A DNA stretch of 39,494 nt from a virus (lineage: Duplodnaviria; Caudoviricetes), in IMG/VR virus record IMGVR_UViG_3300005805_000194, positions 1 through 39,494 of that record. One strand, given 5' to 3'. The notes under the pieces are model-generated. The model was not told where the DNA came from. It worked only from the letters and a program-made list of their open reading frames with translations, and made no database searches. Both the position numbers and the translations under genes were made by a program. Positions 1 through 28,576 of this stretch are shown here, in pieces; position 1 is the stretch's first letter; every line of letters starts with the position of its first letter.

Positions 1-406
1 GTACAGCACCTCGAGCCACATCAGCTACACCTTTGCCCGCAGCTTTAGCAGCACTAGCTACAGCACCTCCAGCAGCTTTAGCACCACCGATAATTTTTTG
101 ACCTGCGGCTTTTAATTGATCTCCGGCACTGGCAGTGTTTTTAATAGCTGTCTCGGCACCCTGCGTAGGAATACCTTTGGATTTTAAAAAGGCCAATACA
201 GTTGTTAGTTCAGCAGTACCACCGGTACGTCCTAGATAGCGTTGGAATTCTTTTTTAAGTTGGTTAGCATGGTCACCTGTTTCTAACTTGCCCTGCGCAG
301 TACCACTGCCTAGCTTAGACAATGCCTTGTTACCTAATTTAGATAACACTCCCATAGGCGCTTCTTGCACTTTTACTGATTCTACTAGTATGTCTGAGAT
401 TTTCAT
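1..406 (-). CDS. Putative internal head/prohead core protein, Ala/Gly/Lys-rich (3' end runs off the window)
   Basis: Not in the ORF track. Manual translation from ATG at 406 is open to the window edge: MKISDILVESVKVQEAPMGVLSKLGNKALSKLGSG...GGAKAAGGAVASAAKAAGKGVADVARGAV. The N-terminus resembles the T4 capsid-targeting sequence, and a TAAATA late motif lies upstream at 435-440. Confidence 0.7.
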   Translation of the reverse strand, partial: MKISDILVESVKVQEAPMGVLSKLGNKALSKLGSGTAQGKLETGDHANQLKKEFQRYLGRTGGTAELTTVLAFLKSKGIPTQGAETAIKNTASAGDQLKAAGQKIIGGAKAAGGAVASAAKAAGKGVADVARGAV

Positions 407-457: not shown

Positions 458-584
458 AACGAGCTAAAGCTCGTTTGCTTTTTCGCGCTTCGCGCTCAAA
501 GCACTTTTCTTTTTTCTTGAATTATCTAAGTTGTGAAAGATATGATATATTTGTGATGACAACTATAAATGCGAAGCATTTTAG
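458..584. other. Cluster of short hairpins including two GCGAAGC mini-hairpins, plus a T-rich tract
   Basis: AACGAGC-TAAA-GCTCGTT at 458-475; GCGC-GAA-GCGC on minus at 485-495, inside TGCTTT/AAAGCA arms; T-tract at about 505-518; AAATGC-GAA-GCATTT on plus at 567-581. Confidence 0.6.
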
Positions 585-650
585 CATTATCTAGATTATT
601 CAGTCACACTTAGCCCAGAGCGGGCTAAGATCTTGTACATTATCTGAGTT
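520..650 (-). repeat. Three dispersed 13-nt repeats AAYYYAGATAATK
   Basis: Minus strand: AACTCAGATAATG (650-638), AATCTAGATAATG (597-585), AACTTAGATAATT (532-520). Confidence 0.6.
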
Positions 651-940
651 ACACAGTACACAATAGCATTACAACATTACAGTGGCGGTCGTCCGGTACC
701 ACGAGTTGCGTCTTAATACGACGGCGGATTACTATACAGATGCTATCCCATATAATAACCGTAGGTTATTAACCTTCTTTTAGCCTTTGGAATTCTTTTT
801 AAACAGCAAAATCAGTTGTATCTAGGCATATCTGATCATGGTCCTGTTAAGGATACTTGCTGAGTGCTTGGTACAGCGCCAAGTCTTCCGTCCCTCTTAT
901 TATCGAGTTAGCGTGGGCACACGTTATTAACCTGTGCTAG
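600..940 (-). ncRNA. Putative large structured non-coding RNA, family unknown; boundaries approximate
   Basis: No ORF of 60 aa or more in the track. Stems at 917-937, 867-883, a three-way junction 804-862 (inner stems 811-836 and 842-853), 763-775, 725-761, 709-723, 682-702, 634-660 and 609-629. The 725-761 stem needs 4 G-U pairs that form only on the minus strand. Confidence 0.6.
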
Positions 941-942
941 TC

Positions 943-1392
943 TTATACTGTTTTGTTACTTGCCTGAAATTTCTTGATTATGTGAGAGCCATGTACACGA
1001 ACCTGTATGTGTCCGTTATACCAATCATTAGATTCTAGTACCTTACGTGCGAATTGCTCGCGAGCCTCTATGTATGAGCATTCTGCTTTGCTTTGACAGT
1101 AAAACAGTATCTCTCTTTTGAAATTATCTACGCCTAACAGTTCGACATCTTTGGTAAGTTCAGGACTGGAACCATAATATGTTTGCCAATCTGAATCAAC
1201 TTTGCTGCGAACCTTCTTTTTCTTTTTCGTGCCGTTTTTTAGTTTATGAACTTTATAGGTAGTACGTCTAAATTTTGCTAATTTTTTGCCTATGTACTTG
1301 CGGGTTGAGGTGAGATTAGTGATTATGTAAACAAAACCTACACAATCTTCAGGTAATTCTTCAACTAATTGATCTTCATAATACCACGACAT
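943..1392 (-). CDS. Stand-alone GIY-YIG (Seg-like) endonuclease-domain protein
   Basis: GFVYIITN...KYIGKK motif, then YYGSS, FKREIL, conserved E (YIEARE) and N (WYNGHI). The track start at 1395 is TTG; ATG at 1392, overlapping the upstream TGA (TGATG), is more likely. Confidence 0.85.
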   Translation of the reverse strand: MSWYYEDQLVEELPEDCVGFVYIITNLTSTRKYIGKKLAKFRRTTYKVHKLKNGTKKKKKVRSKVDSDWQTYYGSSPELTKDVELLGVDNFKREILFYCQSKAECSYIEAREQFARKVLESNDWYNGHIQVRVHGSHIIKKFQASNKTV

Positions 1393-1622
1393 CAACTAGT
1401 TATCTTTGGTGGTCTCCCCAATTTGCCTTTTCTGGCTAACTTTCTTGATTCTCGTTTTGCCTGTATTTCCATTCGCCTAGATGATGCTAGATTGCGTATT
1501 TCTGATAGCCAATACCGTGCCTTAATGCCTGCTTCATCTGAGCCTTTATATTCAAAACGTTCTTGCCATTTAAAATACTGCTGAAACGCTTCGATCATTT
1601 TATCATGTGATTCTGTGGTCAT
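1392..1622 (-). CDS. Small basic protein, Hc1 (histone H1-like) family-like DNA-binding protein
   Basis: FEYKGSDEAGIKARYWLSEIRNLASSRRMEIQ resembles the KG..AAG.RAR..L.E......RR.E pattern of Hc1-like proteins. Basic tail; translationally coupled on both sides. Confidence 0.6.
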   Translation of the reverse strand: MTTESHDKMIEAFQQYFKWQERFEYKGSDEAGIKARYWLSEIRNLASSRRMEIQAKRESRKLARKGKLGRPPKITS

Positions 1623-14650: not shown

Positions 14651-17600
14651 ATGGCCAATGATAAATTTCCTAAAAGTGGACTACCGATAAGAAAAACGGT
14701 TGATCTATTACCGGCAACTTTTAGAACAGAAACCAATGACAAATTTATGTCTGCGGTTGTTGATCCATTAGTTCAGCCCGGTGTTCTAGAAAAAACTGTA
14801 GGATACATTGGTCGTAGATTTGGTAAAACATATGGCGGTACTGACGTCTATCTAGATTCAGACGAAACACTTAGAAGTAGATATCAGCTTGAACCAGCTG
14901 TAGTTATCAAGGATAACAATGGTAATATAGATAAACTTTACGACTATATTGATTTTAAAAATCAATTAAAATTCTTTGGCAACAATGTAGAACGTGACGA
15001 TTTAACCACAGCACAAGAACATTTTGCATGGAACCCACCGAAACACTGTGACAAATATGTTAACTTTCTTGAATGCTATTGGATACCAGAAGGTCCCCCT
15101 CCTGTTGATGTATTTGGGCAATCTGATAAAATAGTCACCCAATACCAAGTAACATTAGGAGCTACTGGCAATTCTTATATTTTCTCTCCTGATGGTTTCA
15201 CTAATAATCCTACACTAACTTTCTATAGAGGAGCAACCTATAAATTTAGAGTTATCTGTCCTCAAGAAGGATTAGTGATTAGATCAAATTATGATACAGG
15301 ATCGTTATTATTAAATCCAAATAGAGCATATCAGCCGGGCGAGTTAGCAGTTTACGATAACAAACTTTGGAAAGCCAAAGTATTTGTTGCCCCAGGTGAC
15401 GGCAGCAGTATTGATGCAGATAGTCAAGATTGGGAATTTGTTGAAGATGCTACTTCTACTTCAGTTTTAGATTACAACGATGGCGTAACCAACAATGGTG
15501 TAGAAAATGGATTTATGGATTTCACAGTTCCATACAATGCTCCCGATGTTCTTTATTATCAAAGTAAAGTTACACCTGATAGATTTGGTCGTATCATCAT
15601 TGCTGACATAGAATCAAATACATTTGTAGATGTTGAAAAAGAAATTATTGGTAAAGCGACATACACCAGCGGTAACGGTATTAAATTCACTACAGGTCTC
15701 ATAGTTGAGTTTAAAGGTAATGTAACTCCTAAGAAATATGCTAAAGGTCGATGGGTAATTGAAAACGTAGGGGCTCAAATAAATGTAGTCAATTGGGACG
15801 ATCTAATAATTCCGAGATTGGCCAAAGATGTTCCTGAAGTAACATTTGACGATGGTGGATTTGATACCGGACCATTTGATGATGCTACAGCATACCCGTC
15901 AGAGAAAGACTATTTGATAATTAGTCGTGACAGTATCGATCTTAATCCTTGGACCAGATATAATCGTTGGTTCCATCGAGCTGTATTAGATTACGCTTAC
16001 GGAATTCGCGGTCAAGAATTTACAGCACCAGAAGAGGCAAGAGCAAAAAGACCAATTTACGAATTCTTAGCAGGTCTACAATTATTCAATCATGGTAGAA
16101 TTGCCAAAGAGACTGTTGATTATATTGATACCTATACAGATGACGTGCTTTCTAAAATTGAAGGCAGTGGGGGATATAGTGTTGACGGTCAGGAATTATT
16201 TGAAGGCGCAAGACTTTTAGTAGTAGCAGACACTGATACCTTAACCAATAATAAAATTTATGAAGTACAATTTATATTACATAACGGTAGAACACAAATC
16301 CATCTAGCTGAAACAGAAGACACTGTTTCTAAAGAAGGCGAGTGTGTACTGATACGTCGAGGCAACACTAATCAAGGGTTGATGTATCATTTTAACGGCA
16401 CAGCTTGGGTTAAGAGTCAAGAAAAAACTAAGGTAAATCAACCTCCGTTATTTGATGTTTATGATGAAGATGGTGTAAGTTTTTCAGATACTACCAAATA
16501 TCCAGATTCTACATTTGCTGGATCTGAAATCGTTGGCTATAAAGTCAATCCTAATGGAGTACCGGATCCCGAATTAGGAATTCCATTAACATTTCTTAAT
16601 ATTGATAATATTGGTGACGTTGTACAACATTTTAATTGGGACACTGATACATTCACATATAGAGATGGTAATAACGTAATCACTAAACGTATTGCTACAG
16701 GATACTATTATCTAGATCCAACAGGCGGATACGGTGGGTGGGGTAATGGATGGACACCGTTGTCATCGAAATATACAATGCCAATCCTAGACAGTGTGAA
16801 AATCACTTCCTCAACTAATACCTTTACTATTGATACAGTTGATTGGAGTCTTTTGCCAAATGATGATGAATTTGCGATTCGATTCTATTTGAATGGAATT
16901 ATTTACAAAGGGCCATATGTTAGAGATCAAGGAACATTTACCTTTACTGAAAAAACATTTAAAGAAAACGATATCATAACTATAAAGGTAGTTGCCGACA
17001 TAGAACCAAAATCTGGTTATTATCAGATACCATTAGGATTAGAAAAGAATCCATTAAATGCACCGGTGGCACAATGGACACTAGGTCAAGCAGCCGATCA
17101 TTTGAATTCTGGTTTAGATTTCAATCCTTATTGGACTGGCGTAGTTCCTGGCCTTAACGATCTACGAGATATTCCTTTTGATGAGTTCGGTCAACCGTGG
17201 AATACTTATAGTACTCGTTATCTACATCATTCTGGAATTACACCATTAGCGATTACTTTATTATGCGACAAAACAACTAATATTGTTAAATCTCTTCAAT
17301 ATGCTAAAAAATCATATACAGATTTTAAAAATAATTTTGTAGCAAAAGCTATAGAGTTACCATACAATGAAAATATCGCTAATTTTGTTGATGATATTAT
17401 TTCTAATTTAAGCAGAACAAAAAATACTAACAGTCCATTTGCTGACAGCGATATGATCGGTAGCGGAGCATACACAGCTATCAAGTATACAGTTGAAGAT
17501 ACCGGTATTAAAACGTTTGCATTGTCTGAAAGATTTGTATTAGATGAATTAAGTCGTCGTGCGGTATATGTTTATCTAAACGGAACACAATTATTGCATG

Positions 17601-20600
17601 CGAAAGATTATGAATTTAATGGAATATTTGGTTTCGTAAATATTCTTAAATCATTAAATGAAAATGATCTAATAGAAATTAGAGAATACGTTTCGACAGC
17701 ATCTTGTCATATTCCTCCTACACCTTCAACATTAGGATTGTATAAAAAATATACTCCTATGAAATTTGTTGATGATACATATCGAGAACCTAAAGAAGTA
17801 ATACAAGGGCATGACGGTAGTATTACTATCGCTTACGGTGACTTCCGAGACGATTTATTATTAGAATTAGAATACAGAATTTACAATAATATCAAACAAG
17901 AATATAATGCCAAAGTGTTTGATATTGATGTAACAGTCGGCGGATACTACGGTAATGCGTTGTTTAACAAAGACGAATTAAATGATGTAATAAATCCAGA
18001 ATTTTTAAAATGGGTTCAAAATACAAATATCAATTATACACTAAATGAATATTTTGTAGAATACGAACCGTTCACTTATACCTATAGTAACATGTCAGAC
18101 CCGACTGGCACACAAAACTTGCCAGGATGGTGGAGAGGAGTGTACAGATGGTTCTACGATACAGATCGTCCACATCGTTGTCCATGGGAGATGTTAGGTT
18201 TTACAGAACAACCAACATGGTGGGAAGCTACTTATGGAGCGGCTCCGTATACCAGCAACAATTTGATTCTATGGGAAGATCTACGTGATGGGTATGTTCG
18301 TCAAGGTACACGAGCAGGTCGTTATGATAGATATAAACGTCCATCTCTGATGAGTCATTTGCCTGTTGACGCTGATGGTAAATTGTTAAGTCCTTTAGAT
18401 TCTGGGCTAGCTAGAGATTTTGTTTTATTAAACAATCGAGGTTCATTTACATTAGGTGATGTATCACCGGTAGAATATGCTTGGAGATCAAGTTCAGAGT
18501 GGCCATTTGCTATGGCTATTGCGATGTGTTTATTAAAACCATTTGACTTTATCGCTAATAGTTTTGATAGATACTCAACTGTAAAAAATAAATTAAATCA
18601 GACTATCAATAAGACCACAGGAACATTCGTTACCCTTGAAGATCTTATTGTTCCTGATACAACTGGAGAACAGACCGCCGGACTAGTAAACTATTTGGTT
18701 AGTTATATTAAATCTAAAAATTTATCTTTAGATATTTTAAATAAAAATATTAAAAATCTTTCAGTTCAACTATCGACAAGATTAAGTGGATTTGTAGATA
18801 AAGAACAACAAAAATATCTATTAGATACTAAGAGCCCCAAATCAGCAACCAGTGGAATTTTTATTCCACCGGAAAACTATGACATTGTATTCAATGTTAG
18901 TTCCCCTGTTAAGAGCTTAACCTATAGTGGGGTATTATTAGAAAAAACCGAAGGTGGGTGGATAACTAACGGATATGATGATGTATTACCATATTTTGGT
19001 TATTATGAACCATTAGTCAGCCAAGGAGATCCTTTAATCTCAGTTGGCGGAGTAAGTGAAAACTTTGTCGAATGGGAATCAGAATATAGATATTCTAACG
19101 GTCAGATAGTTTTATATAAAAATGATTTTTATAGAGCAAACATAACACATCAAAGCTCGACAGAATTTGTTTTAGCCAATTGGAAAAAATTACCTAAGTT
19201 ACCACTAACTGGTGCGGTTGAAGCATTTAAGAGAAGAGAATTTAACAAGACTCGAATTAAAAAATTAAGTTATGGTTCTAAGTTAACAACACTACAACAG
19301 GTAGTTGATTTCTTATTAGGATATGAAGAATACCTTAAAGATCAAGGATTTATTTTTGACAATTATGATACAGAAAATCAAGTAAGTCAAGACTGGACTA
19401 CAAGTTGTAAAGAATTTATGTATTGGACCAAACACAATTGGGCATTAGGTTCGATAATAGCATTAAGCCCAGCAGCAGAAAAAGTACATGCATCTGTTAC
19501 AGTTGGTGTGGCAGAAAACATCATCGATGGATTCTATGACTATCAGGTTCTTAAAGATGATGGAAAACCTTTACCGGTTGCAAATATCAATGTTAATAGA
19601 ACATTCCAGAATATCACCATTGAAACTACAAATACAACAGAAGGTATATATTTCATTAAACTTTACTATGTTCTTAAAGAACACATTACAGTATTTGATG
19701 ATATCACAGTGTTTAATGATGTTATCTATGATAAGCCAACAGGATATAGACAAGATCGTATTAAATCAGTTGGATTCCGCACAATAGATTGGGACGGCGA
19801 CTATACCAGCCCAGGATTCTTGTTTGATAATGTAAACATACAAGTATGGCAACCATTTACGGATTATAGATTAGGTGACATCGTTTCATATAGAAGCTAT
19901 AATTGGACCAGCTTGAAAAATCAATTAGGCACGGAAGAATTTGATGATACCAAATGGACCAAACTAGATTCAACACCAACAAAACAATTAGTTCCTAATT
20001 TTGATTATAGAATTAATCTAATTGAAGATTATTATGATATTACTTCAGACGGTATTGGCGTAACAACGACTGCATTATCACGCCATGCAACTGGATATCA
20101 ATCGAGACTATATTTAGAAAATCTTTCTGAAGATATGGTAACACAGTATCAACTCTATCAAGGATTTATCCGAGAGAAAGGTACTAACAATGCTATTACT
20201 AAAGTATTCAATAAACTCAGTCGCGCAGAGGATGCAGCCGTTGTTTTAAAAGAAGAATGGGCTTTCCGAGTTGGTAGATTGGGCGGTGTTAATCAGTTAA
20301 GAGAAATTGAATTCACAATTGATAAAGATGAATTCCAGTTAAATCCTCAACCTGTATTAATTTCTACAACAATACCGAGTGTCACTATTGATCAGTATTA
20401 TAGAATTAATGAAGCAGGATTTACAATTAAACCTATTCCTTATGATGTGAATATAAATCCAACATCGGCAGATGCAGAGCCAACTAAAACTGCTGGATAT
20501 GTTAAACTTGATCAGGTTGAATTTATTGTAAAAACTAGAGATGACATTTTAAATTTAGATATTTCTGAATTTTATGAAAATGATCATGTGTGGATAACAT

Positions 20601-23600
20601 TCGATTCATTCACATGGAACGTTTTAAGATTAAATGAATCTCCAGTATTAACTATTGTAAGTCTTTCAAGATCTGGTACAGACGTAGTTATTGCACTTAA
20701 TAGAAGACATGACTTCGTTGTAGATGATATTATTGGTATTAAAAATGTATTGAATTTAACTGGATTCTTCAAGATAACATCAGTCGGGTTAGAAACAGTA
20801 ACAGTTAAAATAGCATCAACGACCCAGGATCCTCAACTAGACGATAGTACAGTTACAAATGTACATCTGTTTACAGAAACACGATTTGCATCGTATGGTG
20901 CACTAGATCCTCAAGAAGCAGCACTATTACCAAACGGATCTAGAATTTATATTGATAATAATGGTTCAGATCTTTGGGAAGTAATTAAAAAGAAAAAACA
21001 ATATTCTGGAAAAAATATTGTACAATACGGAACATCTGCTCCTTTATACACTGGGACAGAAGTAGTTTGGAATGATAAACTTAAACAAGCATTAGTAGGT
21101 ATTCCAGGAACTGGATATGTAATGGCATACCTAGAAACAGAAGCTGGATTATCACTAAGACAAATTATTGCTCCAGAACCTGGTCTTGAATCAAATGTTA
21201 TTGGATCATTCGGATCAGCGATAGCAGTAAGTCCTGACAGTAGATTTTTAATAATTGGTGCTCCGGGAGCAAGCGGAATTGAGAGTGATTATCAAGGTGA
21301 TTACAGTCCGATTCGAAGTTACCTTGTTGGCGATATTGTATTGTACGCTGGAAAATTATGGAAAGCGGTTAAAGATACAGTCGGTGATGGTAGTACTGTA
21401 AATGTTTATACAGAAGATTGGGAACCAGCAGTTTCAATCCCAGCCTTTTCTTCAGGACGAAGCACTGGTGACACAAGTCAGGGCATGATCTCAATATACG
21501 AGTGGTCAAATCAGCAATGGGAAATTAAAAATTCTTTTGTTAGCCCTCGCCCAGCAAACAATGAACAATTTGGTTCTGACATAACAATAGGCGTTAGCGG
21601 CACAACTTATTACATGGCAGTATCTGCAAAAGGATCTTTAGAAAATCGAGGTAGAGTATATCTATATGTTTACGACGGTATAGAATGGAAACATCTAGAA
21701 AATCAAAATTACAGAGGAATATATGCCCCTGCTGGAACATACAATCCGATAACCGGAGTATACAATCCGGTCGGTACAACTTTCTATCCACAAGAGTCTG
21801 TAGTATGGTGGGATTCTGCACTTTGGGAAGCACAAGCAGATAATTACGCCGACGGTAGTACATTAAGTATTGATTCTGCTGATTGGAAAAAATTAGATCC
21901 TATTTCTACTCAATGTTCTTTACCACAAAATATTTCATTAAACGACGACGGTTCGACATTGGCAATGGGATTATTAAATCCTAATCAGTTGGCCGAATTA
22001 GTTAAACAAGGTGATCAGTTTGGTCATAGTTTAACAATGAGTCGAGATGGCAATATTCTTGTTGTTGGTTCTCCTAATAGTGATTCTCAATATTTTGCAA
22101 ATTACAAAGGAATATGGAGACCAGATATTGAATATGTCGAAGGAGATGTTGTTAGATATGTTGATCCTTCATTCGTTACTCCTGGATTTGATTCTCAAGA
22201 AGACAGAATGTATTCTTACTATCGATTAGATCAAAGACTTGGCGATCCTGCTGATTCAACAACTAGAAGTTACAACGAACTTCCAGATGCCGGCACACCT
22301 TGGATTAATATCGGAGATAGTTCATCATTGCCATCAGGAAAAGTTTATATCTATCAACGTTCGACCTATGGTACATATGAACTTAAACAGACTATTAATG
22401 CTGATTCATTACCGGAAATCAATGATCTTGATTCTGGAAATACTATAATTAATTCTGGAGATCAATTTGGTTGGGCGTTAGACATTGATTATTCTGGAAC
22501 ATCTTTAGTGGTGTCAAGTCCTCGATCAGATATTAATTTACAAAATCAAGGAAGTGCTTATATATTCCGCACTGACGGGTTTGCTGAACCACAATATAGA
22601 TTAAAACAAAAATTAGAAAGTTTTGAAAGATTTCCTAATGAATATTTCGGTCAAAGTGTAAGCATCACCCCTGGTGCTGAAAAAATTGTAATAGGTGCTA
22701 AAAATAGTCCGTTTGTATTTTTAACAAGATTTGATACGGTATTAGGCACAACTTTTGATCAAGGTAGAACTCGATTCTCCGATATCCAAGGATATGCCGG
22801 CGGTGTGTATGTATTTGAAAATAAAAATGATACATATTTCTTAACAGAAAAATTAGAAACAGATTTATCACCATATGAAAGTTTTGGATATAGTGTTGAT
22901 GCTACAACATCTATAATATTAGTAGGATCTCCTGATTATCAAGAACCAACGATAGAAAATGCTATATTCTCTTTCACCGGACCAAAAATTGGTATGGCGA
23001 GATTGTTTAAAAAATCGGCATCTCTTGATTCTTGGGAAATTTTAGCATCAAGAAATCCTGTGGTTGACATTTCAAAAATCAAAAGCATTGCGATGTACGA
23101 TGATGTGAACAACGTTAAAATACAAGATTTAGATTATGTTGATCAAGCAAAATTAAAAATTTTAAATCCAGCAGAAAAAGAACTTAAATTTAAAACACCA
23201 TATGATCCTGCGGTATATTCTATCGGTACAGATGAATTGATTGTAGATCCAACCCAAGCATGGAAGGAACTGCATGTTGGCGAATTATGGTGGGACATTT
23301 CTAAAGCCAAATGGTTATATTATGAGCAAGGAGATGTAAGTTATAGAACAGGTAACTGGAACACTCTAGCTGAAGGTGCTAGTATTGATGTATATGAATG
23401 GGTACAATCGATATTATTACCAAGCGAATGGGCAGCAGTAGCAGATACCAATGAAGGTGTAGCAGAAGGCATTTCTGGACAACCTTTATATCCTAATGAT
23501 GATGTGTATGCTATTAAAGAATTGTATAATGAAAATACAGGACAATTATCAGGAACACTGTATTACTACTGGGTTAAAAACAAAACTATAGTACCAGAAA

Positions 23601-26600
23601 ATAAAGTAGGTCGCAGTATTTCTGCAGCCACAGTAGCTTCTTATATTAATAATCCTAGCGGAACAGGAATAGCATTTTTATCGATAATTGATGCAGATAA
23701 GTTTTTATTCCATAATGTACATTCAATATTGTCAGTTGATACAGCATCAGTCAATATCCAATATGTTAAAAATGATAGTAGACTAAATCCTATCCATAAC
23801 GAGTATCTATTGTTAACTGAAGGGGTAGCAGATAGTCTTCCTAATGAAAAAATAGAAGCAAAATGGATTGACAGCCTTGCTGGACAAGATGTAGCAGGTA
23901 ATAGAGTTCCCGATCCTAAATTGCCAGCTAAACAGAAATACGGTTTAGAAATAAGACCAAGACAAAGTATGTTTGTTGATAGATTGCCTATTCTTGAAAC
24001 AGTGGTAACAAATATTAATACAGTTTTATCTAAAGAAGCATTTGCTGATACTATTAATTTTACAAATTTAAATTTAGTAGATGAAATACCAAATGAATTA
24101 TTAAATTTATATGACGTCACTGTCGATACCTATGAAGATTTAGTATCAGTAGGAACTACACGTATCAGACAAGCAGTGCTCAGTGTTAATATTATCGACG
24201 GAGAAATTGATACTATTGATGTGGTATCAACCGGTTTTGGATATAAAGTTCCACCGCCAGTAGAATTTGAAGGTGACGGAGTTGGTGCAACAGCTACCGC
24301 CACACTAGATAATCAAGGACGTGTGGTATCGATTACAGTTAATACACGCGGTAAAAAATATACCACAGCGATCGCTAAAATTAGAAATTTTTCAGTATTA
24401 GTTGTTTCTGATTCCACAGCTAGAGATTTTTGGAGCATTTACGCTTGGGATGATGTACGTCAGGTATTTTTCCGTAGTCGATCTCAAGCATATGATACTA
24501 GAAGATACTGGAGTTTAGTAGACTGGTGGAAAGAAGGATATGATCCTACATCAAGAATAACCAGAGAAATTGGAGTAGTATCAGAAGAACAAGAACCAAC
24601 ATTAGGCATTGAAACCGGAGACCTTATACGAGTTAAGGAATTTGCCAGTGGTGGCTGGGCAGTATTTGAAAAACTTGATGTTCCGGAAAATTCAGGATTT
24701 GCAGAACAATGGCTACAGGTTGGTAGACAAAATGGCACATTAAAGATTAGCGAAGATTTGTACAGAATTAATAATGTTGGTGTTGGGTTTGACAACACAT
24801 TGTCATTTGACACAGCGTTGTATGATATTGAAAATTCTTTAGAATTAAGAAATATCCTTAAGGCAGTTAAAGAAGATATTTTCATAGGTGACTATAGAGT
24901 TGAATGGAATCAATTATTCTTTAGTTGTGTTCGTTATTCTTTTGCAGAACAACAATATATTGATTGGGCATTTAAAACAAGTTTCTTAAATGCTACTCAT
25001 AATGTTGGTGCGCTAGAACAAAAATTAAGCTATAAGAACGATAATCTTGAAAGTTTCCAAGAGTACATTAATGAAGTTAAACCTTATAGAACTACAGTAA
25101 GAGAATATGTCAGTAGATATGATACCGTAGAAGACACTCCTACAGTAATGTCGGATTTTGATTCTCCTGCATTTTATTCTGTAAGTGAAGGAAAAATAGT
25201 TCCTGTAACAGCATCAAACGAACAGATAAATTCATATCCGTGGAAGTGGTGGTTAGACTATCAAGGATATTCTATAATATCTATTAAAGTATCAGATCAA
25301 GGATCAGGATATACTTCTGCTCCTACAGTATACATTGAAGGAAATGGAACAGGAGCCACAGCTAGAGCTTATATTTCAAATGGTAAGGTAGCTGGTGTAG
25401 AGATGTTAACTACCGGTTCTGGTTATACTAAACTTCCTACAATATCTTTAGTTGGCGGTAATGCGTCTAATTCTAATAGAGCCACAGCAGTTGCGGTATT
25501 AGGAGAATCGAAAGTAAGAACATTCAATCTATCAATAAAATTTGATAGAGTTTCTAAAACAGGATTCTACACAGAATTTACACAAACAGAAACAATCACT
25601 GCTCCCGGATCTCAAGCAGTCTTTAATTTAACTTATGCACCATCAAGAGATAAGTCTAAGATATCTATTCTTAAAAATGGTTTATTGATGTTAAGTGATG
25701 AATATATTATTAGTCTTTACATATCTACATCAGATACCTACAGTGCATTGAAAGGAAAAGTTACCTTTACAACTCCTCCAGCTAAGGGAGATGTAATCAC
25801 AGTCAATTACGAAAAGAATGATGAATTACTAGACAGTGTCAACAGAATTGAAAAATATTATTCACCCGCAAATGGAATGAAAGGTAAAGATCTTGGCCAA
25901 CTAATGACAGGTATCGACTTTGGTGGCGTACAAATACAAGGCACAACGTTCGATGTTACAGGTGGATGGGATGCTCTTCCTTGGTTTACAGACAATTGGG
26001 ATAGTGTTGAAAGTTCTGCAGATTATTATCATGTATGTGATGGTAGCACAACCAGTGTAATATTACCGTTTACCCCAGCAGATAGTCAGCAGATTACAAT
26101 ATATCTTAAGAGGGCGGGAACTGCGGTCATTCCAAGCATTGATGATTTAGCATATTCTGAATCAATACCAGAATCTGCAACTGTAAGAATCGATGATCCG
26201 TTCTATGATGCAATAGACGATTCTTCAACATCTTCGAATCCAACCGCTCAAATGCCTACATTTATAGGTGACGGTATCAATAAAGAAGTAGTGATTGGGG
26301 CGTATGTACAAACAAATCCCGGAGATATTTTAATATTCCGACCACTTGAAAGTGACGGATCTGTAACTATTACAGATACTAATCTTCTTGATACTAAATT
26401 AAGTGGCGGATCGTTAGCATCGATGAGTGGTGCGTATGCAACAGCCAACGGAACTACAGCAGAAGAGATTAGTATTGACGGTGATAAATTTATCAGTCCA
26501 GATCAAGTTCCTGCACCGGAAGAGAATGTTCCAGGACAAGTTCTTGATAGTTTAAGTATTCGCGTATTTAATAATACACGTAGCGGTGCAGCACCCTTAC

Positions 26601-28576
26601 AATCTAGATTGTTATTTGGTGATGGCACAACTAGATTCTTTGATATTGGATTAGATGTATTAGAAAATAATTCAGTAATAGTATATGTTGACAAAATAAA
26701 ACAAATGCCAGCCACTGATGATTCAGTAATGAATTACAGTATTGATCTTGTAACCAAACAAGTAGAATTTGTAGAACCTCCTGCAGATGGAGCAATGATT
26801 GAAATTCTTGCTATTGGCATTGGCGGTATTTCTTTATTAGATTATCAAGAATTTGTTGCAGACGGTACTACAAAATTATTCTTAACTTCTGCAAACTATT
26901 ATGATACATCATCAATATTTGTAACAGTTAATGGTGAAGTGGTAGATATAGATTTCATTAACAGTACAGGAACAGTTGATGCCACAGACAAAGTTTTAGT
27001 AAGATTCCCTTCAGATTTGGCCTTTAGAGATATAGTTAAGATCATCTGCCTTGGTTCAAGTTCGGATGTAGATTCTACAGGATTATCAATAGTTCGAGTT
27101 AACAATCAAACATTTGAATTTGAAGGTAGTACCAGAACATTTACATTAGACAATTTTGTAAGTTTATCAAGAGGTGCTGATGCTGCATCGATGATAGTTG
27201 ATGTTAATGGTAGCATATTACGAGGAGTTGATACAACCTATGTAACTTATGATGGTGTAACCAATCAATTTGTATTAGGTATAGATCCAGAAGAGCCATC
27301 AGGTGCTATTTTAAATACCAACATTCGAGTGTTTGTTAACGACATACAAAAAACCATTATTCAAGACTACAGCTATGATGGTACTACAAAAATATTAACA
27401 ATCAAACCATCAGTTTTAACGACAGGTGATAAAATTAAGATTGAAAATGATTTAAGAGCAGAATATCGAATCATTGGTAATGACCTAGTTATCGATTCAT
27501 CAGTAACATTATCTTCAACAAATGAAACTGACAATGAATTAATTAATGTTACATGGTTTAGCGAATACCCATCGATGAGTATTGTAACAGATGAATATAC
27601 AGGCGGAAAAATTAATTACAATTTCAGTCAACTGCCCTTAGATGCTAATTATGTATGGATATATAAAAATGGAGTGCGTTTAGTTAAAGATATCGATTAT
27701 ACAGTTTCTTTACCAAGAGGAGTATTTTATCTAACTGAATTCACAACAGATGCAGACATAATCAAAGCAGTAGTATTTGGTACGGGTATATGGAAATTGC
27801 CAAGTGCTTACGAAATACACAAGGATATGTTAAATGTATATCAATTTAAGAGATATGCGTTAGGAGAAGTTACATTAGCTAAAGATCTTGCTTACTACGA
27901 TACCACAATGACAGTAAGCGATGCGAGTTTATTAGCAGATCCAATAACAAGCAGAAATGTTCCAGGCATTATTGAAATTAACGGTGAAAGGATTGAATAT
28001 CTAGTTAAGACTGGTAATGTGCTTTCTCAACTTAGAAGAGGTACATACGGTACAGCTATTGCAGAATTACATCAAACAGGTACTAATATTGTTGATGTAA
28101 GTATTACACAATCTATACCTTATGCTGAAGATCAAGAACGTGTTGATTTTGTCAGTGACGGTAGTACACTACTAATAGGACCGATAGGATTTGTTCCTGC
28201 AAAATCAACTAGACGATCTACTTGGTATAGAAATTCAATACCAGCAACATACGGACCTTGCGACCAGATCGAAGTATTTGCAGGCGGTACTAGACTAAGA
28301 AAAGACCCTATAACAATATATGACGAAACATTAGGATCAAGTAGTCCTAGTGCTGATAAGCAAGTAGAAGCAGAATTTTCAGTAGACGGAACCACTGCTT
28401 ATATAAGATTAAGTTCAGTAGTACCTGCTGGAACAAGGATTTCTATCATTAAAAGAACAGGAAAATCTTGGTATGATCGCGGTAATACAACCGCTACATC
28501 CGGCGTAACACTGTTTGATAATAGGTCAGCTATTGCTAAATTCATAGCTGAAAGGACAACTAAATTACCCGAATAA
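14651..28576 (+). CDS. Giant 4641-aa baseplate wedge/virion structural protein (gp7-position) with FG-GAP propeller and CBM5/12-like modules
   Basis: Uninterrupted 13.9-kb ORF directly after gp6. Contains FG-GAP blades, W/Y..Y..GD.V.Y....W modules, GSGYT..PTV repeats and a C-terminal INGERIEY...LRRGTYGT motif. Confidence 0.8.
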   Translation: MANDKFPKSGLPIRKTVDLLPATFRTETNDKFMSAVVDPLVQPGVLEKTVGYIGRRFGKTYGGTDVYLDSDETLRSRYQLEPAVVIKDNNGNIDKLYDYIDFKNQLKFFGNNVERDDLTTAQEHFAWNPPKHCDKYVNFLECYWIPEGPPPVDVFGQSDKIVTQYQVTLGATGNSYIFSPDGFTNNPTLTFYRGATYKFRVICPQEGLVIRSNYDTGSLLLNPNRAYQPGELAVYDNKLWKAKVFVAPGDGSSIDADSQDWEFVEDATSTSVLDYNDGVTNNGVENGFMDFTVPYNAPDVLYYQSKVTPDRFGRIIIADIESNTFVDVEKEIIGKATYTSGNGIKFTTGLIVEFKGNVTPKKYAKGRWVIENVGAQINVVNWDDLIIPRLAKDVPEVTFDDGGFDTGPFDDATAYPSEKDYLIISRDSIDLNPWTRYNRWFHRAVLDYAYGIRGQEFTAPEEARAKRPIYEFLAGLQLFNHGRIAKETVDYIDTYTDDVLSKIEGSGGYSVDGQELFEGARLLVVADTDTLTNNKIYEVQFILHNGRTQIHLAETEDTVSKEGECVLIRRGNTNQGLMYHFNGTAWVKSQEKTKVNQPPLFDVYDEDGVSFSDTTKYPDSTFAGSEIVGYKVNPNGVPDPELGIPLTFLNIDNIGDVVQHFNWDTDTFTYRDGNNVITKRIATGYYYLDPTGGYGGWGNGWTPLSSKYTMPILDSVKITSSTNTFTIDTVDWSLLPNDDEFAIRFYLNGIIYKGPYVRDQGTFTFTEKTFKENDIITIKVVADIEPKSGYYQIPLGLEKNPLNAPVAQWTLGQAADHLNSGLDFNPYWTGVVPGLNDLRDIPFDEFGQPWNTYSTRYLHHSGITPLAITLLCDKTTNIVKSLQYAKKSYTDFKNNFVAKAIELPYNENIANFVDDIISNLSRTKNTNSPFADSDMIGSGAYTAIKYTVEDTGIKTFALSERFVLDELSRRAVYVYLNGTQLLHAKDYEFNGIFGFVNILKSLNENDLIEIREYVSTASCHIPPTPSTLGLYKKYTPMKFVDDTYREPKEVIQGHDGSITIAYGDFRDDLLLELEYRIYNNIKQEYNAKVFDIDVTVGGYYGNALFNKDELNDVINPEFLKWVQNTNINYTLNEYFVEYEPFTYTYSNMSDPTGTQNLPGWWRGVYRWFYDTDRPHRCPWEMLGFTEQPTWWEATYGAAPYTSNNLILWEDLRDGYVRQGTRAGRYDRYKRPSLMSHLPVDADGKLLSPLDSGLARDFVLLNNRGSFTLGDVSPVEYAWRSSSEWPFAMAIAMCLLKPFDFIANSFDRYSTVKNKLNQTINKTTGTFVTLEDLIVPDTTGEQTAGLVNYLVSYIKSKNLSLDILNKNIKNLSVQLSTRLSGFVDKEQQKYLLDTKSPKSATSGIFIPPENYDIVFNVSSPVKSLTYSGVLLEKTEGGWITNGYDDVLPYFGYYEPLVSQGDPLISVGGVSENFVEWESEYRYSNGQIVLYKNDFYRANITHQSSTEFVLANWKKLPKLPLTGAVEAFKRREFNKTRIKKLSYGSKLTTLQQVVDFLLGYEEYLKDQGFIFDNYDTENQVSQDWTTSCKEFMYWTKHNWALGSIIALSPAAEKVHASVTVGVAENIIDGFYDYQVLKDDGKPLPVANINVNRTFQNITIETTNTTEGIYFIKLYYVLKEHITVFDDITVFNDVIYDKPTGYRQDRIKSVGFRTIDWDGDYTSPGFLFDNVNIQVWQPFTDYRLGDIVSYRSYNWTSLKNQLGTEEFDDTKWTKLDSTPTKQLVPNFDYRINLIEDYYDITSDGIGVTTTALSRHATGYQSRLYLENLSEDMVTQYQLYQGFIREKGTNNAITKVFNKLSRAEDAAVVLKEEWAFRVGRLGGVNQLREIEFTIDKDEFQLNPQPVLISTTIPSVTIDQYYRINEAGFTIKPIPYDVNINPTSADAEPTKTAGYVKLDQVEFIVKTRDDILNLDISEFYENDHVWITFDSFTWNVLRLNESPVLTIVSLSRSGTDVVIALNRRHDFVVDDIIGIKNVLNLTGFFKITSVGLETVTVKIASTTQDPQLDDSTVTNVHLFTETRFASYGALDPQEAALLPNGSRIYIDNNGSDLWEVIKKKKQYSGKNIVQYGTSAPLYTGTEVVWNDKLKQALVGIPGTGYVMAYLETEAGLSLRQIIAPEPGLESNVIGSFGSAIAVSPDSRFLIIGAPGASGIESDYQGDYSPIRSYLVGDIVLYAGKLWKAVKDTVGDGSTVNVYTEDWEPAVSIPAFSSGRSTGDTSQGMISIYEWSNQQWEIKNSFVSPRPANNEQFGSDITIGVSGTTYYMAVSAKGSLENRGRVYLYVYDGIEWKHLENQNYRGIYAPAGTYNPITGVYNPVGTTFYPQESVVWWDSALWEAQADNYADGSTLSIDSADWKKLDPISTQCSLPQNISLNDDGSTLAMGLLNPNQLAELVKQGDQFGHSLTMSRDGNILVVGSPNSDSQYFANYKGIWRPDIEYVEGDVVRYVDPSFVTPGFDSQEDRMYSYYRLDQRLGDPADSTTRSYNELPDAGTPWINIGDSSSLPSGKVYIYQRSTYGTYELKQTINADSLPEINDLDSGNTIINSGDQFGWALDIDYSGTSLVVSSPRSDINLQNQGSAYIFRTDGFAEPQYRLKQKLESFERFPNEYFGQSVSITPGAEKIVIGAKNSPFVFLTRFDTVLGTTFDQGRTRFSDIQGYAGGVYVFENKNDTYFLTEKLETDLSPYESFGYSVDATTSIILVGSPDYQEPTIENAIFSFTGPKIGMARLFKKSASLDSWEILASRNPVVDISKIKSIAMYDDVNNVKIQDLDYVDQAKLKILNPAEKELKFKTPYDPAVYSIGTDELIVDPTQAWKELHVGELWWDISKAKWLYYEQGDVSYRTGNWNTLAEGASIDVYEWVQSILLPSEWAAVADTNEGVAEGISGQPLYPNDDVYAIKELYNENTGQLSGTLYYYWVKNKTIVPENKVGRSISAATVASYINNPSGTGIAFLSIIDADKFLFHNVHSILSVDTASVNIQYVKNDSRLNPIHNEYLLLTEGVADSLPNEKIEAKWIDSLAGQDVAGNRVPDPKLPAKQKYGLEIRPRQSMFVDRLPILETVVTNINTVLSKEAFADTINFTNLNLVDEIPNELLNLYDVTVDTYEDLVSVGTTRIRQAVLSVNIIDGEIDTIDVVSTGFGYKVPPPVEFEGDGVGATATATLDNQGRVVSITVNTRGKKYTTAIAKIRNFSVLVVSDSTARDFWSIYAWDDVRQVFFRSRSQAYDTRRYWSLVDWWKEGYDPTSRITREIGVVSEEQEPTLGIETGDLIRVKEFASGGWAVFEKLDVPENSGFAEQWLQVGRQNGTLKISEDLYRINNVGVGFDNTLSFDTALYDIENSLELRNILKAVKEDIFIGDYRVEWNQLFFSCVRYSFAEQQYIDWAFKTSFLNATHNVGALEQKLSYKNDNLESFQEYINEVKPYRTTVREYVSRYDTVEDTPTVMSDFDSPAFYSVSEGKIVPVTASNEQINSYPWKWWLDYQGYSIISIKVSDQGSGYTSAPTVYIEGNGTGATARAYISNGKVAGVEMLTTGSGYTKLPTISLVGGNASNSNRATAVAVLGESKVRTFNLSIKFDRVSKTGFYTEFTQTETITAPGSQAVFNLTYAPSRDKSKISILKNGLLMLSDEYIISLYISTSDTYSALKGKVTFTTPPAKGDVITVNYEKNDELLDSVNRIEKYYSPANGMKGKDLGQLMTGIDFGGVQIQGTTFDVTGGWDALPWFTDNWDSVESSADYYHVCDGSTTSVILPFTPADSQQITIYLKRAGTAVIPSIDDLAYSESIPESATVRIDDPFYDAIDDSSTSSNPTAQMPTFIGDGINKEVVIGAYVQTNPGDILIFRPLESDGSVTITDTNLLDTKLSGGSLASMSGAYATANGTTAEEISIDGDKFISPDQVPAPEENVPGQVLDSLSIRVFNNTRSGAAPLQSRLLFGDGTTRFFDIGLDVLENNSVIVYVDKIKQMPATDDSVMNYSIDLVTKQVEFVEPPADGAMIEILAIGIGGISLLDYQEFVADGTTKLFLTSANYYDTSSIFVTVNGEVVDIDFINSTGTVDATDKVLVRFPSDLAFRDIVKIICLGSSSDVDSTGLSIVRVNNQTFEFEGSTRTFTLDNFVSLSRGADAASMIVDVNGSILRGVDTTYVTYDGVTNQFVLGIDPEEPSGAILNTNIRVFVNDIQKTIIQDYSYDGTTKILTIKPSVLTTGDKIKIENDLRAEYRIIGNDLVIDSSVTLSSTNETDNELINVTWFSEYPSMSIVTDEYTGGKINYNFSQLPLDANYVWIYKNGVRLVKDIDYTVSLPRGVFYLTEFTTDADIIKAVVFGTGIWKLPSAYEIHKDMLNVYQFKRYALGEVTLAKDLAYYDTTMTVSDASLLADPITSRNVPGIIEINGERIEYLVKTGNVLSQLRRGTYGTAIAELHQTGTNIVDVSITQSIPYAEDQERVDFVSDGSTLLIGPIGFVPAKSTRRSTWYRNSIPATYGPCDQIEVFAGGTRLRKDPITIYDETLGSSSPSADKQVEAEFSVDGTTAYIRLSSVVPAGTRISIIKRTGKSWYDRGNTTATSGVTLFDNRSAIAKFIAERTTKLPE

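Follow-up and report, generated by a model that had tools for sequence, protein, structure and literature searches.

The Polynucleobacter-1 RNA motif (Rfam RF01718) was catalogued by Weinberg et al. (2010, PMC2864571), and the rows given to it in the table of that paper name no function; searching full texts for the name of the motif returned the 2010 paper only. For the plasmid ColE1, the available portions of three papers describe an rG-dC anchor through which a hybrid persists, the opposite strand becomes free to load a helicase and a primer results (PMC4412123, PMC5043065, PMC5703827). The R-loop origins of phage T4 comprise about 100 bp (a promoter and an unwinding element) according to the available text of PMC3016281, which describes R-loop formation there as independent of specific sequence. 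The locus analyzed here contains a match to the whole RF01718 model and resembles ColE1 RNA II (NC_001371.1) in having a long folded RNA encoded just upstream, a predicted anchor to its own template and a sequence that occurs twice on the transcribed strand. It differs from ColE1 in that sequence and fold homology are absent, in its location in a 345-kb phage and in its predicted anchor, a 7-9-mer ~50 nt off that varies freely, whereas ColE1 anchors through a G tract at a distance of about 250 nt (G6 tracts lie at 928 and 1175 of NC_001371.1). With T4 oriF and oriG it shares the T4-like phage background and a likely transcript followed by an AT-rich element, but in place of the short T4 arrangement it has matched boxes and a pseudoknotted RNA of 370 nt.

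The window (the whole stretch of 39,494 nucleotides that was analyzed) is a piece of a large T4-like phage genome. An Rfam search of the whole window returned RF01718 as the sole match above cut-off, at 942-801 on the minus strand, where the gathering cut-off is passed over the whole model (83.2 bits against a cut-off of 37, E 1.7e-17, model positions 1-141). This domain contains two hairpins (937-917, 883-867) and a three-way junction (862-804). An earlier note, made from the sequence alone, had described the RNA as unrecognized and had named a match of this kind beforehand as removing its novelty; the stretch is a partly known fold, and the first third of the element is catalogued already. 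The limits proposed in that note (600-940) fall inside the element but are too narrow, the conserved element covering about 951-584 of the minus strand (~370 nt). The Rfam model spans just 141 nt of it, ends ~215 nt early and includes neither the pseudoknots nor the middle domain, and neither the twin boxes nor the tail. ARAGORN and the Rfam models gave no match to tRNA, tmRNA, RNase P or group I and II introns in the window, and a ribozyme reading of the element found no support. The cow-rumen-2 model (RF02947) reached 19 bits in the same search (E 3), well below its cut-off of 66; its words UAGC, GCCGYC and GGAYRACCG also occur in the middle domain, which resembles it faintly, making cow-rumen-2 a distant relative at most. 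Giant T4-like phages harbor the locus as a conserved, pseudoknotted, non-coding element that is likely transcribed into RNA. A class-1 set of 158 complete copies was reduced to 118 non-redundant ones, with seven loci that lack the junction motif set aside; four further loci (L117, L124, L127, L157) matched the core pattern by chance. The features of the window locus are as follows.

943-1395, minus strand: SegE-type GIY-YIG nuclease gene, single domain, 150 aa (PF19835, E 2.4e-32; phrog_447)
951-947, minus strand: 5' strand of a pseudoknot, within the last nuclease codons; partner 877-873, with 951-873 and 948-876 covarying
942-801, minus strand: Polynucleobacter-1 domain
783-827, minus strand: pseudoknot of loop 827-824 with 786-783 of a purine-rich linker; 826-784 and 824-786 covary
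661-775, minus strand: middle domain, with the long stem 761-725, helix 708-705/675-672, stem 702-682 and two pseudoknots
637-650, minus strand: box 1, A-CTC-AGATAAT-GT, 7-mer at 645-639; putative RNA anchor
609-629, minus strand: hairpin between the boxes; 626-612 covaries, 83% of cells paired
584-597, minus strand: box 2, A-TCT-AGATAAT-GC, 7-mer at 592-586; putative DNA site, the template strand of which would be bound by box-1 RNA
568-580, plus strand: GAA-triloop mini-hairpin on the template strand, directly beyond box 2, seen in the sequence
505-567, no strand assigned: AT-rich spacer, putative unwinding region
458-504, minus strand: two sense-strand hairpins, GA-GCGC-GAA-GCGC-GAA (497-482) and AACGAGC-TTTA-GCTCGTT (475-458)

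All eight stems that the earlier note had drawn are found on the minus strand at the coordinates given there, among them the 761-725 stem with its four G-U pairs (755-732, 750-737, 749-738 and 747-740). Among homologues, six of the eight stems display clear double-sided changes and two are weak. The hairpin 775-763 is variable in length, aligns poorly and is paired in 40-44% of cells of a 46-sequence alignment. The CGUC/GACG stem (723-709) is compatible with pairing, yet has only one double-sided cell, whereas 720-690 and 719-691, which compete with it, covary strictly; it would therefore represent at most an alternative pairing. The loop 745-740 of the long stem pairs with 664-669, which displaces the G-U pair 747-740. 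The stems of the proposed multi-stem architecture are real. Missing from it were five pseudoknots, both boxes and the tail of DNA hairpins, the parts that bear the mechanistic signal.

Folding energy did not set the window sequence apart from its shuffles (z -1.46 for the minus strand, with 10 of 100 shuffles equally good, and -1.29 for the plus strand; not significant). Support for the fold comes from homologues. A model of 80 pairs across 46 sequences (two rows of which belong to another RNA class) has 86.6% paired cells and a covariation of 0.408, compared with 0.172 for shuffles (0/500 as high) and 0.07-0.10 for slid partners, although these controls are lenient because the model was partly derived from the same data. 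Mutual information demonstrates that Watson-Crick covariation reaches well past the Rfam model. The top covarying pair overall is 708-672, in the middle domain. The five pseudoknots are 951-947/877-873, 942-940/931-929, 827-824/786-783, 745-740/669-664 and 721-719/691-689, the last two being those of the middle domain; positions 948 and 876 change 9/9 times on the tree, and 12 joint changes were counted.

The strand was established by G-U cells outnumbering A-C cells by 404 to 95 (12 helices, 118 sequences), which demonstrates that the minus strand is the sense strand, and GNRA-capped hairpins are similarly biased (92 sense, 21 antisense). The claim of a functional minus-strand RNA is thereby backed by covariation, G-U bias and RNA-type loops. 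Transcription has weak support from a single 198-nt contig that lies wholly within the element (635-832), has a depth of 2.9, comes from one metatranscriptome and might be DNA. No minus-strand sigma70-like promoter was found in 943-1700, a consensus that may not fit this phage; given this result, the RNA would arise by read-through of the gp55-gp47-gp46 run. Table 1 of PMC7318152, as far as available, lists four ncRNAs called from RNA-seq in phage PA5oct, none of which falls in the syntenic gap of that phage.

The two boxes carry the same 7-mer in each of the 118 non-redundant class-1 loci, which represent eight haplotypes. This count was obtained with a pattern that demanded two boxes, and it was therefore repeated with relaxed anchors in three motif-defined sets (150, 91 and 85 loci examined, the first holding some class-2 loci). 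Identical 7-mers were found in 138/138, 84/84 and 78/80 loci, with shuffled means of 25.6, 20.1 and 50.4 (maxima 42, 32 and 58). Inspection of 24 loci missed by the relaxed anchors revealed many further joint variants (GAATGAT, AGCGAAA, ACGAAAT, AGATCAA, AGACGAA, ACGTGAA, GTATGAA, ACAGAAA), some chance matches and one locus (L083) that lacks box 1. Two class-3 loci show a mismatch between the boxes at the last position. On a tree built on the upstream columns, the variable box positions changed jointly in 29/29, 4/4, 9/9 and 16/16 cases and never singly. Fifteen of 15 independent pairs changed the same way (p 6e-5), compared with 1.3/15 for a control pair inside box 1. These results demonstrate that the boxes change together. 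Two other large RNA folds occupy the same site and likewise carry twin boxes. All 11 aligned cultured Rak2-like phages have a 6-mer common to both boxes that is jointly CGTCAA, CGTCAG or CTTCAA, and a GTTGC/GCAAC pairing in these phages covaries as the 721-689 pseudoknot does. No twin box was found in the syntenic gaps of PA5oct and Atu_ph07.

The differences in the flanks have a direction: the mismatches there are wobbles only when RNA of box 1 is placed on the template strand of box 2. At offset +11 the combination T in box 1 and C in box 2 occurs 14 times (12 changes) and the opposite combination once (one change), a demonstrated one-way wobble, and wobble-tolerant runs mostly extend over 9-10 bp for box-1 RNA on the box-2 template and over 7-8 bp in the reversed arrangement. 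Misfits to the pairing are the CTC and TCT flanks (positions 0-2), offsets -2 to -4 and offset +12, and an asymmetry at +10 may simply follow from a fixed G of box 1. In pseudoknot-free folding box 1 is not more exposed than the rest of the RNA (openness 0.43 against 0.42). The boxes might alternatively be tandem sites of one protein, as iteron-like DNA or as RNA, with the RNA body a separate, trans-acting molecule. Identity covariation is expected in that case too, the invariant CTC/TCT flanks could be contacts, and iterons are present at T4 oriE in the available text of PMC3016281. However, the boxes change as strictly as RNA pairs do (29 joint changes against 34-36 for 708-672), which means that the protein would have to change each time, and both the box-to-box spacing of 47 to 79 nt across loci (~50 bases here) and the one-directional wobbles also argue against tandem protein sites, which are considered improbable. 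If an RNA segment pairs with the antisense strand of its second copy, identity covariation as strict as that of a helix, with one-way wobbles, is the trace to be expected. Such a trace of an RNA pairing with its own template is rarely seen in genomes. Judged from these sequence patterns, the RNA probably grips its own template DNA, whatever the purpose.

No third box copy was found at a fixed place on either strand within 2.5 kb (sense positions 30-260 nt past the core excluded). Box-like matches within that distance numbered 88 for the own haplotype and 76 for other haplotypes, a 7-mer being too short for genome-wide testing, and only box 2 matches box 1 in a conserved manner. A partial third box (CTT-AGATAAT) lies at 521-531 of the minus strand within the AT-rich spacer, and similar copies occur in only a few loci. 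K-turn, box C/D and anticodon-like readings of the boxes were rejected by eye, as their partner bases fail to covary. One locus (L083, 2500-2560) has an intact RNA body and tail but lacks box 1, the hairpin and a pseudoknot partner, and represents either a natural deletion or an assembly error.

Past box 2 the character of the sequence changes from RNA-type to DNA-type. GNA triloops are DNA-type hairpin loops, and the loops, GNRA tetraloops in the body, become GNA triloops in the tail, where they occur on both strands. Template-strand GNA mini-hairpins number 39 over 85 loci in the 50-nt bin directly beyond box 2, and GNA hairpins number 50 over the same number of loci in the 50-100 nt bin, with a background of 0-6 per bin; the DNA-hairpin tail is a demonstrated part of the locus. 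The AT content is 0.56-0.75 per 10 nt past box 2 compared with 0.54 in the RNA body. Of 116 loci, 111 have a GAGC..GCGA-type motif, and ColE1 has such a hairpin downstream on the displaced strand, with the motif at 1332 and the best match (14/16) near 1331. The likeness is at the level of the motif only, as the mean score of the best 16-mer between the tail and the ColE1 downstream region equals that of control regions. The gene that follows (ORF 2-406, minus strand) has a TAAATA late-promoter-like word at 435-441 of the minus strand, and its start, MKI-x-I-x-E, is common to the highly variable downstream genes of relatives, the products of which we take to be possibly head-packaged.

One way to use a self-template hybrid would be a cis-acting transcription device, in which box 1 swaps with the 9-10-bp nascent hybrid that forms at box 2 and causes polymerase pausing, termination or modification. 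The pairing length fits the polymerase hybrid of about 10 nt (available text of PMC5043065), the table of the 2010 paper grades the motif as possibly cis-regulatory (PMC2864571, table rows), and the element closes the operon while no minus-strand intrinsic terminator was found in 1-1700. Such a device leaves the DNA-type hairpins on both strands, the occurrence on an island-like contig and the divergent layout in cultured phages unexplained, and we give it little credence.

By analogy, the preferred and somewhat probable reading is that the element is a ColE1-like, RNA-anchored R-loop replication origin. The folded body would present box 1, which is predicted to re-pair over ~9-10 bp with the box-2 template during passage of the polymerase, a step modelled on the rG/dC anchor of ColE1. 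A persistent hybrid would then hold the AT-rich tail single-stranded, the GNA hairpins could load a helicase or primase, and the 3' end that serves as the primer would be created by a nuclease, either the RNase H of the host or an enzyme of the phage. Against an origin stand the lack of a skew switch, the lack of a phage RNase H in two genomes, the thin transcript data and locus L083. Base skew in the two genomes (G001 and G002) tracks the coding strand, does not switch at the locus and is uninformative, and a PF00075 RNase H was found in 0/2 genomes, where the host enzyme could serve. In favor of an origin, two near-complete genomes of 345 kb carry one copy of the element each. A reading of the box repeats as products of template jumping by a reverse transcriptase was rejected, PF00078 being found in 0/2 genomes.

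A self-anchored R-loop could also serve as a site of cutting, of recombination-dependent replication or of genome handling, on which gp46/gp47 and a branch-cutting nuclease act. The locus does lie behind gp46/47 together with SegE, a PDDEXK_15/RusA-like protein or Endo VII, and the missing phage RNase H (2/2 genomes) and skew switch would suit such a site. It is nevertheless unlikely, given that elements occur without an adjoining nuclease (L251, L280 and the island-like L204/L497), that the nuclease gene of cultured phages is directed away from the element and that the tail resembles a loading signal for helicase or primase.

The nuclease gene is the last of a gp55-gp47-gp46-76aa run, and the element begins at its stop codon. 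A structural model of the protein aligns with the catalytic domain of I-TevI (Z 8.6, rmsd 2.7, 82 aa aligned), and Y23, Y34, G36, E110 and N127 are invariant among 47 sequences; a sequence search of solved structures and Foldseek returned nothing at E<=0.001. The family is labelled "NAD synthetase" in PHROG 447 and in many GenBank records, which looks like a propagated misannotation. Starting from the protein, most of 80 viral loci with the nuclease have the element directly behind the gene. Starting from the motif, the gene lies upstream in 71/80, 59/68 and 72/73 loci of three RNA sets, the 80 loci of the first set being those retrieved with flanks, and the other nine of these 80 loci consist of four that are too short, four chance matches and one with a different gene. 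In L143 a PDDEXK_15/RusA-like gene identified by profile takes the place of SegE, and four class-2 loci (L269, L302, L315, L328) contain the same replacement gene judging by likeness of the N-terminal sequence. No nuclease gene adjoins the element in L251 and L280 or in L204/L497, where the RNA, twin boxes and tail lie amid non-phage island genes. The GIY-YIG nuclease is the usual but demonstrably replaceable neighbor of the element.

TnpB omega RNA and IS110 bridge RNA are RNAs that accompany a small nuclease gene, with identity covariation between an RNA loop and the DNA site. A TnpB-like RNA-guided system, in which the RNA would guide the adjoining GIY-YIG nuclease or serve as its scaffold, would be in keeping with the start of the RNA across the nuclease stop codon, with the upstream position of the gene in the three RNA sets and with a protein in which a basic beta-hairpin is present but a separate DNA-binding domain is lacking. 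It is considered very improbable, as the obligate coupling of such a system was not observed: the gene is swapped for an unrelated resolvase-like gene or is absent, ~1 kb of other genes can separate it from the element, and in five distant SegE homologues of cultured phages the gap behind the gene is 0-194 nt, too small for the RNA. Unlike TnpB and IS110 elements, the locus is single-copy and fixed among core genes, and the adjacent box is the only target found within 2.5 kb.

Among the first-examined cultured jumbo phages, three of four have a large gap at this place beside a resolvase or Endo VII gene, and the nuclease gene is oriented away from the element. No blastn match to the element DNA was found in cultured phages. 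In phage Phosso (L503, 6410-7425) a 1-kb gap lies between the Holliday junction resolvase and RNase HI genes, the latter directly following the syntenic gap, a placement that speaks for an origin, and CTTCGCTATTC is repeated within the gap, 66 nt apart. A scan of GTDB identified 12 loci; every one lies in a metagenome-assembled or uncultured-bacterium record, and most of those that were read carry phage genes.

If the origin reading is true, it would provide a function for an RNA motif catalogued in 2010 and place the replication origin of a large group of giant phages, cultured Rak2-like ones included. A wider proposal, a widespread jumbo-phage origin family with interchangeable RNA folds, a re-programmable 9-10-nt anchor to the own template and no initiator protein, is tentative and rather doubtful. 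If an anchor of this kind worked in trans, it would represent a natural RNA-guided means of opening and priming DNA at a site of choice. In literature that includes few subscription journals, searches found no description of the full element or of its likely role, and a text search of the available part of a 2026 jumbo-phage review (PMC13282480) did not return terms for origins or R-loops.

Several loci show further peculiarities. Other genes lie between gp46 and the nuclease gene in L206 and L208, two of those in L206 being radical-SAM-like by motif. Behind SegE in L045 (3465-3950) there is a fourth RNA-like sequence with GGAAAAG on both sides of its final hairpin. In L497 (1400-2250) the RNA has twin boxes of the sequence ACATAAA, the hairpin tail is duplicated and repeats of 62 bp are present, with a Doc/Fic toxin-antitoxin pair and DUF6876/DUF6641 genes as neighbors. 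On the plus strand of the window, a 4641-aa ORF occupies 14651-28576 in the tail/baseplate region.
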